Shown here one piece after another: positions 3,681-62,413 of a stretch of 64,000 nt of DNA; the first letter of the stretch is position 1, and each line of letters starts with the position of its first letter. Position numbers and translations under genes: made by a program. The DNA is from a virus, in UHGV virus genome UHGV-1351772, one strand, 5' to 3'. Below the pieces are notes generated by a model that did no database searches, was not told the origin of the DNA, and saw only the letters and a list, made by a program, of their open reading frames with translations.

Positions 3681-3756
3681 TGGCGGGGGTGGGAAGTTTC
3701 GAACTCCCAACCTTCGGTTTTGGAGACCGCTGCACCACCAATTGTGCTACACCCCC
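3681..3756 (-). tRNA. tRNA-Trp: tRNA-Trp (anticodon CCA), 76 nt with encoded CCA end
   Basis: manual cloverleaf fold of the minus-strand sequence GGGGGTGTAGCAC...CACCCCCGCCA: 7-bp acceptor stem, D-stem GCAC/GTGC with G18G19, anticodon loop CU-CCA-AA, T-arm GGGAG-TTCGAAA-CTTCC, discriminator G. Confidence 0.85.
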
Positions 3757-3763
3757 TAATACA

Positions 3764-4264
3764 TCAAAACAGCTTAAGTGTTTGCGTTTGACCACCGCTG
3801 TACAGGTCGTAACGTTTCGCCACTTCCACCGCAGTGGGGGCGTCAACGCCAGCACCTAATGCACCCAGGGCATAGTGAGCACCTGAGCCTATCGCATACG
3901 GCGGCTCTACAAACACGTAACTGGCGTATTTGTTGTCTTTGCACTTCGAGGCGTCGATAACGCGTCCGTCTGTCAAAACAGCAAGTACGATAAAATCAAT
4001 CTGCTCGGGATACGTCGTTTCGAATCTAACTCCACCCCGTTCGATACCGCCGAAACGTTCAAGCGTGAGTTCTTGGCGCACGGATTGCAATGCGGCGACA
4101 TCACCTGCCAAACCGATCGCTTTCACGTCTTCACCCAAAAGCTTCCACGACGTACCCTCAGGCGGCGTGTGAATCTTACGGTATTGCGTGGCAGCACTAC
4201 GTTCTTCCACGGTGACTTGACCGTCGCAAGCTAACGTCTTTCCGTCGAAAACAATCGTGGTCAT
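3764..4264 (-). CDS. HslV/proteasome beta-subunit-like Ntn-hydrolase (putative threonine protease)
   Basis: N-terminus MTTIVFDGK...DGQ resembles HslV (Thr1 after Met removal) and has the GSG motif AIGSGAHYALGA; AGGAA RBS 7 nt upstream of ATG. Confidence 0.7.
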   Translation of the reverse strand: MTTIVFDGKTLACDGQVTVEERSAATQYRKIHTPPEGTSWKLLGEDVKAIGLAGDVAALQSVRQELTLERFGGIERGGVRFETTYPEQIDFIVLAVLTDGRVIDASKCKDNKYASYVFVEPPYAIGSGAHYALGALGAGVDAPTAVEVAKRYDLYSGGQTQTLKLF

Positions 4265-4626
4265 GACAGATTTCCTAACTCATTGCCGACCTCCTGGTCA
4301 GCAGCTACCATCGAATTCGTGCAACGCGTAACATGTTCACGAATCGCTCGAGCCAAACCTTCACGAACGGCTACCAGGAGACACTCTCGATAGCTCGGAT
4401 AATGCGCAATAGGGCTAGGGATGTGTTCCACGCAATAACCATCGTGAACTTCCACCACTACCGTGATGTAAATCTCGACGGGTTGGTAAATCCGCACGCT
4501 CTTGATCAAATCAAGTAACGCTGGCTCCGTGCATCCCCAGTCCTCCGGGGCTTTTAACAGCACTGCCAACTCATCGAGCCTGTACTGAACATCCAATTCC
4601 ACGTTAGTGGTGTTTTTGGAATCCAT
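4261..4626 (-). CDS. hypothetical protein; probable start at internal ATG 4626 (ORF extends to 4710)
   Basis: AGGAG 8 nt upstream of ATG at 4626; stop overlaps the HslV-like start as ATGA. Confidence 0.45.
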   Translation of the reverse strand: MDSKNTTNVELDVQYRLDELAVLLKAPEDWGCTEPALLDLIKSVRIYQPVEIYITVVVEVHDGYCVEHIPSPIAHYPSYRECLLVAVREGLARAIREHVTRCTNSMVAADQEVGNELGNLS

Positions 4627-5518
4627 ATTAAAATCTCCTGTCGTGGTCTGTGTCACACCAACAGGAAATCCTGTAAAAAAATAATTCAGCTGCGTACCGG
4701 CGTTTCTCAACGGGAGTACGCACCCCTCTCGTCTTTGCGAGCCGTCAAGCTAGAGGACATCACACTGCCAGCGCTACCTGGAGCAGGGTCATTCGACGCA
4801 ACGTCGTAATTCGCATTTTGGCCGCACCTCTGGGAGCGTATCCCACCGTCGGCTGCCCGCAGGTAAGTTCTACGGACCTTTCGCCAACGTCGCTCCCAGA
4901 GGCTGCCACGGTTCACTCGGATTTTCTCATGTGGTCCACGCGTCACTGATAGCGCGGGTTCCCCAACACTCGTAAGTCGGGGAACGGTACCGAGCACCTG
5001 AACTCTGGGGATTCCAAAAATCCCTCGGGGTAAGTACGATTCGCAAATCGATTTTCAAACCCCATAGTAAAACAAACTCCAGTGTTAGGCTGAACGTTTT
5101 GTTTTTCCCAGTACACGGCGAAATAAATTCCATGCACTCGAAAAAACAACCCCCAAACCAACACCCGGTCAGGGGGCTTCGAGCTCTGCTGAATCTTCGC
5201 AGACAGAAATCGTGTTTGAGCTGTGAGCAGTAAACTCCTGAACTCCGAAAAATCTTCGTGGTTGGATTTGTAAATCATCCCACGCAAATCCTCCGAACAT
5301 ACCATAGGGTTTTAACGTTCGAAAAAGGGGAATGGGTTTTACCCCCCTCGGTCAGGTGTTCAGGGTAGACCCCCTACCCGATCCCCCAGGTGGGGATTTT
5401 ACCCTGGTGAATTACCCCGGGTTCGATTTTCGGATTTTCTGGAAAATACCGCTCACCGATCCCTACCCCCTCAGGGGGGTCAGACCGAGATCAGATCTCA
5501 TAATAAGGATCGCGCGCG

Positions 5519-5614
5519 TTTTATATATATTTATATATAATATATATTATATATAATAATTATTATATTAATAAATATATTAATATATTTATTTAAATAA
5601 ATAATTAAATAATA
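5519..5614. repeat. 96-nt pure A/T low-complexity tract (possible DNA unwinding element)
   Basis: no G or C from 5519 to 5614; flanked on the left by cgcgcgcg (5511-5518). Confidence 0.8.
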
Positions 5615-5682
5615 CCTAAAGGTATTATTATTTTGATCCTAAAGGAATAATATATTTATAAATAAATATATTATACTATACG

Positions 5683-5700
5683 CGCGTGCGTACGCACGCG
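5683..5700. repeat. 18-bp perfect palindrome cgcgtgcgtacgcacgcg (alternating purine-pyrimidine)
   Basis: sequence equals its own reverse complement; sits at the right edge of the AT-rich tract. Confidence 0.85.
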
Positions 5701-5758
5701 TATAAGGAAGAGATCTTGAGATCAGATTTTTGAGAGAGTTAAAAATTTAAGATCGATC

Positions 5759-5779
5759 CGAGAGACTTAGTGTCTCTCG
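5759..5779. repeat. inverted repeat/hairpin cgagagac-ttagt-gtctctcg
   Basis: 8-bp perfect arms with 5-nt spacer. Confidence 0.7.
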
Positions 5780-5835
5780 AAGAGTATTAAAAAATTTAAA
5801 AGATCAAAAAACCAAAGCTAGAGAACTACTCAACC

Positions 5836-5862
5836 TGAATCTTCAGTGTGTGAAGATTCAGT
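5836..5862. repeat. inverted repeat/hairpin ctgaatcttca-gtgtg-tgaagattcag
   Basis: 11-bp perfect arms with 5-nt spacer. Confidence 0.75.
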
Positions 5863-6331
5863 AAGTTGATCAATCCAGCTGATCCGCTAGTACGCGAAGC
5901 GTGAATGTTTTTTTGATCGTCGCGGCGGCCGGTCCGCCGACCCGAGGGTGGGGTGGAACTGGTCGAGGGGAATGCCCCTCAGGCGCTCTCAATCGCGCTG
6001 TAACGAGTTAAACGGGGTTCTGGTACCCAAGTGTACCCCTTGAGGAGATTTTTGCGTCAAAATGCGTTCTAGAGCGTTTTACGATGGGGTGGGTTTTCGA
6101 CCCACTCAGGGATAGGGGTTGGCGTGACAGCTCGAACGACAAAATCGTGGTTTCATGGCGTTGAGTGAAAATAAATTCAAAACCCACAACCAAAAACACC
6201 CTCAAATTCTTCGTAGGAAGCTCTCTGACGAGATAAACGTGGGTAAGGGGTACGAACGTACCGCCTGGAAAGAAAAATGCGTTAGAATCGCTCTCAGCGC
6301 GTTTTTGATTTTTGGGCAAAAAAATAAAACG

Positions 6332-6351
6332 GGGGAGACTTCGGTCTCCCC
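6332..6351 (-). terminator. intrinsic terminator-like hairpin downstream of the 6362..7486 gene
   Basis: ggggagac-ttcg-gtctcccc (UUCG tetraloop) with A-run on plus strand upstream, i.e. T-run after the hairpin on the minus strand. Confidence 0.5.
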
Positions 6352-6361
6352 AGAATATTTT

Positions 6362-7486
6362 TTACAGAGTCGTCAGTTCTTTTGACGGATAGTACAGTTT
6401 CACATCGACCAAACTGTAACCGGTGGCGTAGAACACCTGATTTCCGACCGAAGCAATAAACCCTTCAGGGTCGATAACGTCAACCGAGAAATCGGAATCG
6501 AATAGCCAGGTTTCTTGTTCCCCTTCCCGTTCGAAAACGGCAGCGTAACGCCCGTATTCTGGGCCTCGGCGGAAACGAAACAGCGTTAATCCTGTCTCAC
6601 GTTCTAAGCCATAAATCACCCCATTTTCTTCGTAGATTTCAGCGCGATTACAGCGTGTAACCGTCAACAACGCAGGCCGTTGTGTCGGGATTGTTTTAAA
6701 CGGTGAAGGCCCATCGTATGTCGTTGAAACCCAATCACCGAGACTGTCTAACGCCAGTGCTCGATACGCGATAGGTGACTTGTAGTTACACAACCTGTTG
6801 CCCTCGGTGTACATCGTGTATTCGATGCGTAACGTAGTACCGATGATGTCGTTCAAACTCAGTTTGTAGTGCGCTAACTGGGCTTGTATACGACAGGACA
6901 GAATTGTACACAGGAAAGTGTGACCCTCTGTAGAACGGCACACAACTCCGTAATCGGTCACTGCCAGTAACGTGGCATCTGTTTTACGGACGGGTTCCAG
7001 GCGAAACACCTCATTTTCAGTTTCTACGAGGAACTGCGAAACCGCTTGGTTTCTGGATTTAGCTTTAATCGTATCGAACACATCACCCGCTTTTACGATT
7101 AACGGTTCTACCACGTTTACCTGAAACGGCAGCGGTTTAGTTGGGTATTGTCCCAACGTTGTAATCGTTACTGAGTTGAGTTCTGGGTCCGATGCGTCAG
7201 GATCACCAGACAACCAATACGTTAGCCATTTCGACAACGTCTGGGGAATGACGCGCGTGGTGTAAAACAGAATTTCGCCATGTAAACCTGCCTCTGCCAA
7301 TTCGCGTGCAAGAAACGAGTTGACCGCGTCGTAGGTACCGTTGCGCAAGATGTCCATACCCCCGACACGAACCAAATCACAAATTACGCCGTGTGGAAGA
7401 ACCCACATTTTGACGTTTTGATTTCGGTCGATGGTACCTTCGCGCAGCATTCTGTGCCAAACGGGTTTACGTAAGTAATTTCTCAT
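6362..7486 (-). CDS. hypothetical protein (374 aa)
   Basis: six-frame ORF; TAAAGGAG-type RBS context upstream of ATG. Confidence 0.6.
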   Translation of the reverse strand: MRNYLRKPVWHRMLREGTIDRNQNVKMWVLPHGVICDLVRVGGMDILRNGTYDAVNSFLARELAEAGLHGEILFYTTRVIPQTLSKWLTYWLSGDPDASDPELNSVTITTLGQYPTKPLPFQVNVVEPLIVKAGDVFDTIKAKSRNQAVSQFLVETENEVFRLEPVRKTDATLLAVTDYGVVCRSTEGHTFLCTILSCRIQAQLAHYKLSLNDIIGTTLRIEYTMYTEGNRLCNYKSPIAYRALALDSLGDWVSTTYDGPSPFKTIPTQRPALLTVTRCNRAEIYEENGVIYGLERETGLTLFRFRRGPEYGRYAAVFEREGEQETWLFDSDFSVDVIDPEGFIASVGNQVFYATGYSLVDVKLYYPSKELTTL

Positions 7487-7559
7487 TTTAAAACTCCTTT
7501 AGGTAGAATAAGACTCTCACTAGGATAATATCTATCCGTAATTATTTCGAGGTTCACTA

Positions 7560-19477: not shown

Positions 19478-19504
19478 TACCTACCTCCGTCAAGGAGGTA
19501 GGTA
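19478..19504. terminator. bidirectional intrinsic terminator
   Basis: tacctacctcc-gtcaa-ggaggtaggta 11-bp perfect stem, A8 upstream, TTTTATTTTT downstream. Confidence 0.6.
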
Positions 19505-43159: not shown

Positions 43160-43185
43160 TACCTACCTCCGAAAGGAGGTAGGTA
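43160..43185. terminator. bidirectional intrinsic terminator
   Basis: tacctacctcc-gaaa-ggaggtaggta; the 11-bp stem is identical to the one at 19478; A-run upstream, T-rich downstream. Confidence 0.6.
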
Positions 43186-48373: not shown

Positions 48374-48436
48374 GATAATTCTCCTTTAGGGTAAAAAATG
48401 AAAATACCCTACTCCTAGTCAGGAGTAGGGTAGATG

Positions 48437-52592: not shown

Positions 52593-52663
52593 AATTCACT
52601 CCTAAAGAATGTCTCACGTAGATAATATCTGTCTGACTTCTTTTTGAAATTGAGGTAGTAAGA

Positions 52664-56697: not shown

Positions 56698-57486
56698 ATG
56701 AATGTAAATCCACTTGCAGCGTTATCTAGCTTCGCCGCTAAAGCGTCTGCAATCTTACCGAAAGGGTTTAGTGGCCCTCAACAAGAGATTGCATTAACCA
56801 CTTATGACGAGATGTCGGACGTTTCCAAGTGGATGCAACAAGAAAAATTCCTACACTTTGCGGGAATGTTGGTTATCGTTCCACCTGGGTTTAATACCTA
56901 CGTGATGGATCACTTGAACCGCTTAGAATCTGTATGGAGTTCACTACAAAACATCTATACGGGTATTCTGCTACCGGTCGATAAACAACTTTCGGCCCTT
57001 ACACATGATGTGGGGGTACTGTCATTACCGATTGGTTTCCGTTACAAAAACGTTAATTTACCGTTACGTAATGTTAACCCGAAAGACCTGGTTAACTTAT
57101 TAGCGAAATCGTACACTAATAACGTTATTGACCAGCGACCAATTGAGAAGACGTACCACAGCGCGTCTGAGATTGACGTTGCGTTCAATCGTGCTAAAGC
57201 CCTGAACGTTGAAATTACGAAACGTTTACGGACGAATATCGACAAGTCAATCGAGTCCATTCGCACTACGTCAGAAATCTTGTCCGAACAAAACATTCAT
57301 CCGAATGTAGCAAAAGAACTGACGATGATGTTAGATTTTGCATCCGATTGGGTGGAGCTGTTTGGTCTGTTCATGAAACAGGTTAACGAGTTAATCGAAT
57401 GCCTGAACGTTACTGCCGAACGCTTAAAAGCGCTTAAGGCAAACAAAAATAAAAAAGTAAAGTTACCCCTAGACCGTGTGGTCTAG
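56698..57486 (+). CDS. hypothetical protein (262 aa) on plus strand
   Basis: ORF with GAGG RBS; stop lies inside a 13-bp hairpin terminator. Confidence 0.5.
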   Translation: MNVNPLAALSSFAAKASAILPKGFSGPQQEIALTTYDEMSDVSKWMQQEKFLHFAGMLVIVPPGFNTYVMDHLNRLESVWSSLQNIYTGILLPVDKQLSALTHDVGVLSLPIGFRYKNVNLPLRNVNPKDLVNLLAKSYTNNVIDQRPIEKTYHSASEIDVAFNRAKALNVEITKRLRTNIDKSIESIRTTSEILSEQNIHPNVAKELTMMLDFASDWVELFGLFMKQVNELIECLNVTAERLKALKANKNKKVKLPLDRVV

Positions 57487-57492
57487 GGGTAA
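57463..57492. terminator. bidirectional intrinsic terminator
   Basis: 13-bp perfect stem ttacccctagacc-gtgt-ggtctaggggtaa followed by T-rich tract. Confidence 0.5.
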
Positions 57493-61708: not shown

Positions 61709-61744
61709 TTTAATAACTCCAATGGTGTTACACCTGGATAATAT

Positions 61745-62413
61745 CTATCTAAGAATATTTTTAGCGAAAAAAGGATCGACTGTAAACTCCCTCACCTGTG
61801 AGTCATAACCCGAATGTATCTGATCGCTACTGAGCAAATACCCGTCTAAATCGTGTGGAAGAATCCAAGAATCGCCTTGTTTAAAAATACCATAATCTGT
61901 TGTTCCAGAGGAAAAAACGATTTCCTCTGGAGACGAATAGATGTGGCGTAAGGCAAGATCTGACGGCTTTAACACGATTAATCGAACGGGATGTTGACTG
62001 ACTGCCTCTTTAATAAACTGTTCACGATTAAACCAAATTATTTTTTCGGGGTAAGTTTCGAATTCAGCCCATGTCCGCGTGATAACTAATTTGGAAATCT
62101 TTCTCAATTCTTCAGAATGCTCTGCGTAGCCGATACACTCCTTGCGCACTTCATGATTTTCTACCGATGCTGTGAATTTTTGGAATAGGTGTTGTTGGAA
62201 AAAGCCGTTCTCCGGGATATCACAACCCGCGTTGTATAGTGCAATGATCTCCCACAACAACGAAAGAGAAAACACAAATGCTAACTTTTCCACAACTTCC
62301 CAATCTTCGGAGTAAGGGGCTTTAAAGCCCCAATACTGCCGTGCGTTATACATAAAGTGAGTTTGTAAAAACCGAGGGGCTTTTGACAAGACCTCACTAT
62401 AAACGATCAGCAT
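61745..62413 (-). CDS. hypothetical protein (222 aa)
   Basis: six-frame ORF. Confidence 0.5.
   Translation of the reverse strand: MLIVYSEVLSKAPRFLQTHFMYNARQYWGFKAPYSEDWEVVEKLAFVFSLSLLWEIIALYNAGCDIPENGFFQQHLFQKFTASVENHEVRKECIGYAEHSEELRKISKLVITRTWAEFETYPEKIIWFNREQFIKEAVSQHPVRLIVLKPSDLALRHIYSSPEEIVFSSGTTDYGIFKQGDSWILPHDLDGYLLSSDQIHSGYDSQVREFTVDPFFAKNILR

Follow-up and report, generated by a model that had tools for sequence, protein, structure and literature searches.

Two perfect inverted repeats as putative members of a hairpin array in a non-coding locus of SPN3US-like jumbo phages

Two perfect inverted repeats, IR1 and IR2, lie to the right of a long AT tract in a part of a phage genome that holds no credible genes, and the question they raise is what kind of signal they represent: duplex sites for a DNA-binding protein, hairpins or cruciforms, or terminators of transcription. 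The window, by which we mean the whole 64-kb stretch of DNA that was analysed, belongs to a jumbo phage whose DNA is approximately 75% identical to that of Salmonella phage SPN3US (Seoulvirus) and of Erwinia phage Asesino (Erskinevirus). We report an analysis of the two repeats, of the locus around them and of the homologous loci of related phages. From this IR1 and IR2 appear to belong to an array of about six stem-loops on which selection has acted through structure rather than sequence, and which occupies the right flank of a unique cis-acting locus in the SPN3US-like jumbo phages.

The repeats and the surrounding locus

IR1 (hairpin h3) occupies positions 5759-5779 and reads CGAGAGAC-ttagt-GTCTCTCG, its perfect 8-bp arms enclosing a 5-nt loop (8+5+8), precisely where a preliminary description of this DNA had placed it. 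IR2 (hairpin h5) reads CTGAATCTTCA-gtgtg-TGAAGATTCAG (11+5+11); its 11-bp arms are indeed perfect, though its true position is 5835-5861 and not 5836-5862, an error of one base, and its stem is lengthened by an outer CAAC/GTTG tier to span 5831-5868. To describe the repeats as immediately right of the AT tract, as had been done, is somewhat loose: the tract ends at about 5679, with IR1 80 nt and IR2 156 nt beyond it, and an alternating-CG palindrome fills 5680-5701 between the tract end and IR1.

The window holds 33 perfect hairpins whose stems reach 8 bp or more, against 7.0 +/- 3.0 in Markov simulations, and 11 whose stems reach 11 bp or more, against 0.1 simulated; because of this latter excess IR2 is clearly non-random and far beyond chance. 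Folded as single-stranded DNA, IR2 reaches -11.3 kcal/mol (z = -5.2), a value that 0 of 200 shuffles equalled, and IR1 -8.2 kcal/mol (z = -2.6). IR1 by itself is within chance, 8-bp hairpins being expected several times per window, and what significance it has derives only from its conservation among relatives. A search for additional copies, suggested in the preliminary description, tolerated up to 3 mismatches and returned none of either repeat in the 64-kb window. IR1 stands between the two copies of a 16-nt direct repeat (AGAGAGTTAAAAATTT / AGAGTATTAAAAAATT), at 5733-5748 and 5781-5796. Long-range pairing of the right arm of IR2 with a loop at 5189-5198 (ctgaatcttc) was considered and rejected, the loop reading ctgaatcatc in L007 and L012 with no matching change in IR2.

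The stretch without credible genes that contains both repeats is 1.73 kb long (4629-6361). To its left lies a minus-strand gene for which the ATG at 4628 is the probable start, with a ribosome-binding site (aggaga) ahead of it; the open reading frame called mechanically (4261-4710, minus strand), which begins from TTG at 4710, extends too far. Further left, a tRNA gene is found at 3684-3756 (minus strand). The right neighbour is a conserved minus-strand gene of 374 amino acids (6362-7486), which ends in a bidirectional, terminator-like hairpin, GGGGAGAC-ttcg-GTCTCCCC, at 6332-6351, the right end of the locus.

Between these limits the order of elements is a GATC-rich box, an alternating-CG clamp, the AT tract, a second alternating-CG palindrome, the hairpin array and a TGATCG box. 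The left boundary box, TAATAAGGATC followed by CGCGCGCG (5501-5518, plus strand), is conserved in all clades, and its ATAAGGA is repeated in direct orientation at 5702-5710. The AT tract (5519-5679) contains perfect palindromes made of A and T only; it varies from 110 to 180 bp in length, the variation lying in its middle, while its ends are invariant. A central palindrome, AATAATACC-taaa-GGTATTATT (5608-5629), is conserved across clades as AT[A/C][C/T]C-N4-G[G/A][G/T]AT, and a second palindrome within the tract, GATCCT-aa-AGGAAT (5635-5648), is likewise conserved in sequence; the forms seen in relatives include ATCCC-tacg-GGGAT, ATATC-taaa-GATAT and GATCCTG[G/T]AGGA. Both are likely candidates for protein-binding sites. 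Alternating CG/CA tracts, which are prone to form Z-DNA, stand at both ends of the AT tract (5511-5518 and 5680-5701) in every clade. The right-hand one is a clamp of 22 nt in perfect purine-pyrimidine alternation, palindromic at 5683-5700 (CGCGTGC-gtac-GCACGCG), and its stem covaries, being CGTGTGC/GCACACG in L003 and L012.

At the far side of the array stands hairpin h6, ACGC-gaa-GCGT (5892-5902, plus strand), which contains the mini-hairpin heptamer GCGAAGC and is followed, in this clade, by a run of seven T. Its stem covaries (ACGC/GCGT, GCAC/GTGC and CCGC/GCGG; alifold pair counts GC:7 AU:3 CG:2) and its triloop is GAA or GTA on the plus strand in most clades. The conserved box TGATCGTCGCGGCGG (5914-5928, plus strand), which supplies the TGATCG anchor, served as our positional reference. 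To the right of it lie some 400 nt of further conserved non-coding sequence, which align poorly between clades; cross-clade RNAalifold gave support there only for h6 and for an ACCC...GGGT hairpin.

The locus is singular in several respects. Its AT tract is the sole AT island of such size in the 64-kb window. No intergenic region in the complete 240-kb genome of SPN3US is larger than this locus (approximately 1.7 kb), and its AT island of 114 nt is the longest there, the others reaching 41 nt at most. GATC sites are also concentrated here, 14 of them falling within 5380-5915 (536 bp), in a cluster that spans 5380-5918, where approximately 1.6 would be expected, on both flanks of the AT tract and in the linkers between hairpins. 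In SPN3US no other stretch is as dense in GATC as the locus (10 per 600 bp, the next best having 6), and the genome as a whole has 2.0 GATC per kb, only about half the number expected. That phage encodes a D12-class, Dam-family adenine methyltransferase (gp161), and nearly all of its genes are co-oriented, leaving the locus. An SbcD-like nuclease subunit (gp239) is also annotated.

Pairing and sequence among relatives

Homologous loci were gathered from 14 or more genomes and contigs of about six lineages: the clade of the window itself (L003, L012, L029 and L128), Seoulvirus (L001, L039, L038 and SPN3US itself), Erskinevirus (L002, L005 and L008), the Caitlin/ChrisDB/Huxley group (L004, L010, L022 and L030) and Wellingtonvirus (L035, L042, L044 and L046), while a metagenome scan contributed only two close relatives (L125 and L128). 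The overall architecture of the locus is the same in all of the relatives collected. Derbicusvirus (Phobos, CR5) possesses the neighbouring gene and lacks the architecture at that place.

Hairpin positions were measured without alignment, taking the conserved TGATCG(G/T)C box as the anchor. At the position of IR2, 13 of 14 loci have a perfect hairpin whose centre lies 62-66 nt left of this box, and the fourteenth has an imperfect one. The stem of this hairpin takes eight different forms (CTGAATCTTCA, TTGAATCTTCA, GTAACCGACA, GTATCCGACA, GTAATTCGCA, GACAAAC, AACAAAC and GAGAGAC), its spacer ranges from 4 to 12 nt across clades and, within the clade of the window, L012 and L029 carry a compensatory change of C-G to T-A. 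Equivalents of IR1 occur in 12 of 14 homologues, again with eight different stems, at 115-121 nt from the box in other clades, 127 nt in L012 and L029 and 145 nt in the window and L003; the 18 nt by which the window and L003 exceed L012 are due to an 18-nt indel. The closing pair at this position is always C-G and the loop has the form T-N-(N)-R-G. Neither repeat is followed by a T-run in its equivalents in other clades.

In 11 of 14 loci the 235-nt segment has a higher hairpin content than any of 200 dinucleotide-preserving shuffles, and in the other three it beats all but 1-3 of the 200. Identity between the arms of different lineages is 0.35-0.38, close to random, and the flanking boxes are well conserved. 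The conserved trait is thus pairing at a fixed place, with full covariation of the stem, and not sequence, which weighs against sequence-specific operators in duplex DNA and favours a stem-loop signal. Two coincidences of sequence may be recorded beside this. The Wellingtonvirus stem at the IR2 position, GAGAGAC/GTCTCTC (L035, L042, L044 and L046), is the same as the IR1 stem of the window, and the right arm of IR2 in the window (5851-5861) contains GAAGATTC, the 12-nt motif (TCACGAAGATTC) that is conserved in the loop of the equivalent of IR2 in L004, L010 and L022.

Further evidence comes from near-identical genomes, in which the loops of these hairpins are found inverted. In IR1 the window has the loop ttagt where L003 and L128 have its reverse complement, actaa; in the hairpin at 6332-6351 the loop ttcg of the window is replaced in L003 by cgaa; and in the CG palindrome (5683-5700) L003 has gtgc and L012 gcac. 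As the change in IR1 would otherwise demand five simultaneous changes in near-identical sequence, these are inversions, and they occur alongside concerted, two-sided changes of the stems. This combination is the signature of intrastrand template switching at hairpins, and it shows the arms to pair within one strand, in DNA, during replication. Such switching would explain why all of the local hairpins are perfect, including the terminator-like ones at gene ends; since the latter are equally perfect, however, perfection of the stem cannot decide between a function in DNA and one in RNA. What we find fits that part of the preliminary description which saw in the repeats hairpin- or cruciform-forming sites: position and pairing are kept, stems are replaced wholesale and loops are inverted.

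As to the strand on which the hairpins act, the array loops are purine-rich and C-poor on the plus strand (G 74 : C 27), with A-rich linkers, and this bias points to one functional strand, though the inverted IR1 loop of L003 and L128 indicates that loop orientation is not strictly required. A comparison of the two strands of the hairpin segment, by minimum free energy and by end mismatches, leans at most slightly to the minus strand. Watson-Crick pairing accounts for all 298 pairs of the array stems, and the first mismatch outside the stem is G-T(+) in 4 cases against A-C(+) in 11. GATC sites are conserved in the inter-hairpin linkers of every clade, which argues that the hairpin segment is read as DNA.

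Readings of the hairpin array

Intrinsic terminators resemble IR1 and IR2 in being perfect stem-loops with short loops; the two repeats differ from them in having no U-tract, in being AT-richer and in not standing at a gene end. The sequence downstream of IR1 is aagagtatta on the plus strand and gatcgatctt on the minus strand, and that downstream of IR2 is taagttgatc and gttgagtagt, respectively, none of which holds a T-run. The nearest gene end, at 6362, has its own terminator (6332-6351), the repeats lying a further 470-590 nt away in the middle of the locus. The preliminary description was right to set termination aside for want of U-tracts: no T-run follows the repeats on either strand in any clade, and a terminator scan omits both. 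The terminator-like gene-end hairpins of this genome are GC-rich with T-rich tails. Long, perfect, GC-rich examples with stems of the TACCYACYYCC type stand at 19478-19504 and 43160-43185, and also at 585-614, 48405-48432 and 57463-57492; two gene-end hairpins share an identical 11-bp stem, TACCTACCTCC, around different loops, and these GC-rich hairpins are probably a family of terminators. Hairpin promoters of the N4 type, with a 5-7-bp stem and a 3-nt purine loop, were likewise considered and rejected for IR1 and IR2, which have stems of 8 and 11 bp and 5-nt loops. Only h6 has that geometry, and this phage group uses multisubunit RNA polymerases, as opposed to the single-subunit virion RNA polymerase of N4.

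Our best explanation, to which we would give somewhat less than an even chance, is that IR1 and IR2 are hairpins selected for shape and formed on the unwound plus strand of an origin-type DNA element. The AT tract would serve as the DNA-unwinding element of a phage replication origin and would melt, possibly with the help of transcription from the tract. The exposed plus strand could then fold into hairpins, IR1 and IR2 included, which would keep the bubble open and mark the loading place for a helicase or priming machinery, acting in the manner of the single-strand initiation signals of RSF1010 oriV and of the G4 complementary-strand origin. The GATC cluster may couple the activity of the site to Dam-type methylation. 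Origin function, folding of the single strand in vivo and a priming or loading role are what we infer from this arrangement; like every functional reading considered here, they rest on anatomy, conservation and analogy.

In favour of this reading, the locus is single-copy and has an AT-rich element of the unwinding type that is unique at its size. We also count for it that the position and pairing of the hairpins are kept while the sequence of the arms is not, that U-tracts are lacking, that GATC sites are clustered at the locus of a phage with a Dam-family methyltransferase and recur in the linkers of the array, that a GCGAAGC mini-hairpin stands in the array, that the loops are biased in strand and can be inverted, and that the genes are co-oriented, leaving the locus. 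Mini-hairpins of the GCGAAGC type are unusually stable as DNA. According to a review they are frequent at phage replication-initiation sites, among them the G4 origin and ssiA of RSF1010 (PMC13037366). In the ssiA and ssiB signals of RSF1010 oriV and in the G4 origin, as in our locus, hairpins stand beside an AT-rich unwinding region, putative in our case, and include a GCGNAGC or CCGAAGG-type mini-hairpin (PMC13037366); they act by shape, on one strand, as the hairpins of our array would. The locus differs from them in having six or more hairpins in place of one to three, in lacking iterons and in having loops that can flip. Kept structure with varying sequence, one of the traits by which ssi hairpins are judged, was found in the array.

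Comparison may also be made with enterobacterial oriC and with the pac site of phage P1, in both of which a dense, conserved GATC cluster surrounds an AT-rich segment as it does here. The present cluster is set in a GATC-depleted genome, and a Dam-family methyltransferase is encoded by the phage. The locus lacks the DnaA boxes and 13-mers of oriC, and its hairpin array and alternating-CG clamps have no known counterpart in either oriC or P1 pac.

Several observations weigh against an origin or bear on it from the other side. For hairpins that would have to extrude as cruciforms from the duplex, stems of 8-11 bp are short. No iterons or direct repeats resembling DnaA boxes were found, the only direct-repeat families being two-copy 10-16-mers; the sequence-conserved palindromes of the AT tract could replace iterons as initiator sites. 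There is no initiator gene next to the locus, and the annotation of SPN3US lists a DnaB-like helicase and DNA polymerases and no primase. Cumulative GC skew, in the window as in SPN3US, tracks gene orientation and has no switch; we discarded it as an indicator, the genome being transcribed almost entirely one way so that skew is uninformative. Prediction of origins fails for related giant phages (PMC12390700), and we found in the papers searched neither a mapped replication origin for SPN3US or its phage group nor anything on non-coding RNA in that group or on this region. Furthermore, the left arm of the locus behaves as RNA, so the hairpins could equally be RNA stem-loops.

It is this last point that sustains the foremost rival, which is a real possibility though we consider it doubtful. 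According to it, the AT tract would carry divergent promoters and IR1 and IR2 would be 5'-proximal stem-loops of a rightward, plus-strand RNA (approximately 5683 to 6351), with a leftward RNA running from approximately 5500 to 4650; the stem-loops would provide stability, processing sites or protein-binding sites. The conserved left arm (4653-5500, minus strand; 438 to 850 nt in length across clades) is a candidate large structured RNA of approximately 800 nt and behaves as one on the minus strand. It folds to -60 kcal/mol by alifold on that strand against -43 kcal/mol, single sequences from 9 of 10 loci have a lower minimum free energy as minus strand than as plus strand, compensatory changes are seen in 20 of the 41 consensus pairs of 4678-4937, and several pairs are predominantly G-U, which is possible only on the minus strand. 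The open reading frames within it gave no PHROG hits, and Rfam 15, searched over 4600-6400 at E values up to 10, gave no match at family gathering score. The arm adjoins tRNA genes and lies upstream of a gene for an HslV-like peptidase.

Other features are in keeping with divergent RNAs. The two flanks of the AT tract are alike in design, each with ATAAGGA, a CG run and paired GATC sites; the loops of the plus strand are purine-rich and include tetraloops of the GNRA type (gaaa, gtaa and gaga), between A-rich linkers; in 7 of 12 loci the plus strand gives the better fold for the 200 nt that lie beyond the TGATCG box on the right; and the locus closes with a hairpin and T-run on that strand. 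Phages related to phiKZ have early promoters that consist of AT-rich motifs (PMC5312081; PMC7598289). A search of the window for an AT-rich early-promoter motif found none, and no promoter was found in the locus. The one recurrent motif of promoter-like type found in this group, AGATAGATATTATCT-NN-GTGA, precedes genes both in SPN3US and in the window and is absent from the locus. In the form AGATAGATATTATCY-NN-GTGA it precedes start codons by 40-70 nt and in every case shares the strand of the gene, with 7 matches in the window against 1.5 expected; sites in the window include 7523-7537(-), 52620-52634(-) and 61736-61750(-), and those in SPN3US are at 4427, 7395, 15619, 15712, 23810, 25226 and 28969, among others. 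Against the RNA interpretation stand also the GATC cluster in the linkers, which has no rationale at the level of RNA, the strand tests on the hairpin segment, which favour the minus strand slightly if at all, the failure to match any Rfam family, and the AT tract itself, which at 110-180 bp and with conserved palindromes exceeds by far what a promoter needs.

Structured RNAs are nevertheless compatible with an origin activated by transcription. The locus has a candidate structured RNA gene beside an AT-rich element, as is also the case for ColE1 RNA II, the T7 primary origin and T4 oriF/oriG, and the setting, a lytic phage with its own RNA polymerases, can be likened to that of transcription-primed origins. 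It departs from these in that the RNA for which there is support runs away from the AT tract and not into it.

It is unlikely, in our estimation, that the locus is instead a packaging-initiation (pac) site like that of P1, the hairpins being recognition or architectural elements for a terminase with no known small subunit. GATC clusters on either side of an AT-rich centre, a phage-encoded Dam-family methyltransferase and a single-copy site 3-4 kb from the large terminase gene would all suit such a site, as would the several database records that start or end within the locus. We set aside these record ends as physical termini, since the first base of such records is fixed by alignment and convention (PMC6256631). 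For this group the literature describes headful packaging with no mapped termini (PMC6256631, PMC12390700), and PhageTerm finds no obvious termini in related giant phages (PMC12390700). Neither is there a repeated hexamer like the TGATCA/G of P1, the bases that flank the GATC sites being variable.

The operators proposed in the preliminary description fare worse. Perfect two-fold symmetry and a regulatory-looking intergenic setting are what one might expect of duplex sites for dimeric phage proteins, each lineage co-evolving its protein with its site, but the half-sites are essentially unrelated between lineages beside boxes that are conserved, each repeat has one copy in the window with nothing resembling a regulon, the spacer at the IR2 position varies from 4 to 12 nt, and strand asymmetry of the loops is not expected of a symmetric duplex site. 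We therefore regard this interpretation as very improbable, and the AT-tract palindromes (5608-5629 and 5635-5648) appear to be better candidates for operators than IR1 or IR2. That the repeats are functionless, made and kept perfect by template-switch errors of replication, seems to us scarcely credible: loop flips and concerted arm changes do show such a process to be active, in a genome rich in perfect palindromes, but in every clade a hairpin is kept there, despite complete turnover of its sequence, within approximately 4 nt of the same distance from the anchor, in lineages whose other non-coding DNA is hard to align.

Implications for the phage group

The reading that we prefer, of shape-selected hairpins on the unwound strand of an origin-type element, can be extended to the locus as a whole, though more speculatively and with a good deal less confidence. 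The entire 1.7-kb locus might then be a replication origin of a composite design not described before, in which an AT-rich unwinding element, clamped by CG palindromes prone to form Z-DNA, is flanked on one side by a hairpin array studded with Dam sites, to which IR1, IR2 and the GCGAAGC mini-hairpin belong, and on the other by a structured and as yet unclassified RNA of some 800 nt that primes or regulates initiation.

Among the papers searched, none establishes at what site DNA replication starts in the phiKZ-related giant phages, and the locus provides a concrete and testable candidate: it is single-copy, its architecture is conserved across several genera, and its AT content and GATC density are extreme. 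Within it, IR1 and IR2 are handles that are easily mutated. Should the locus instead encode divergent structured RNAs, large and unclassified non-coding RNAs would be added to the biology of the jumbo phages.
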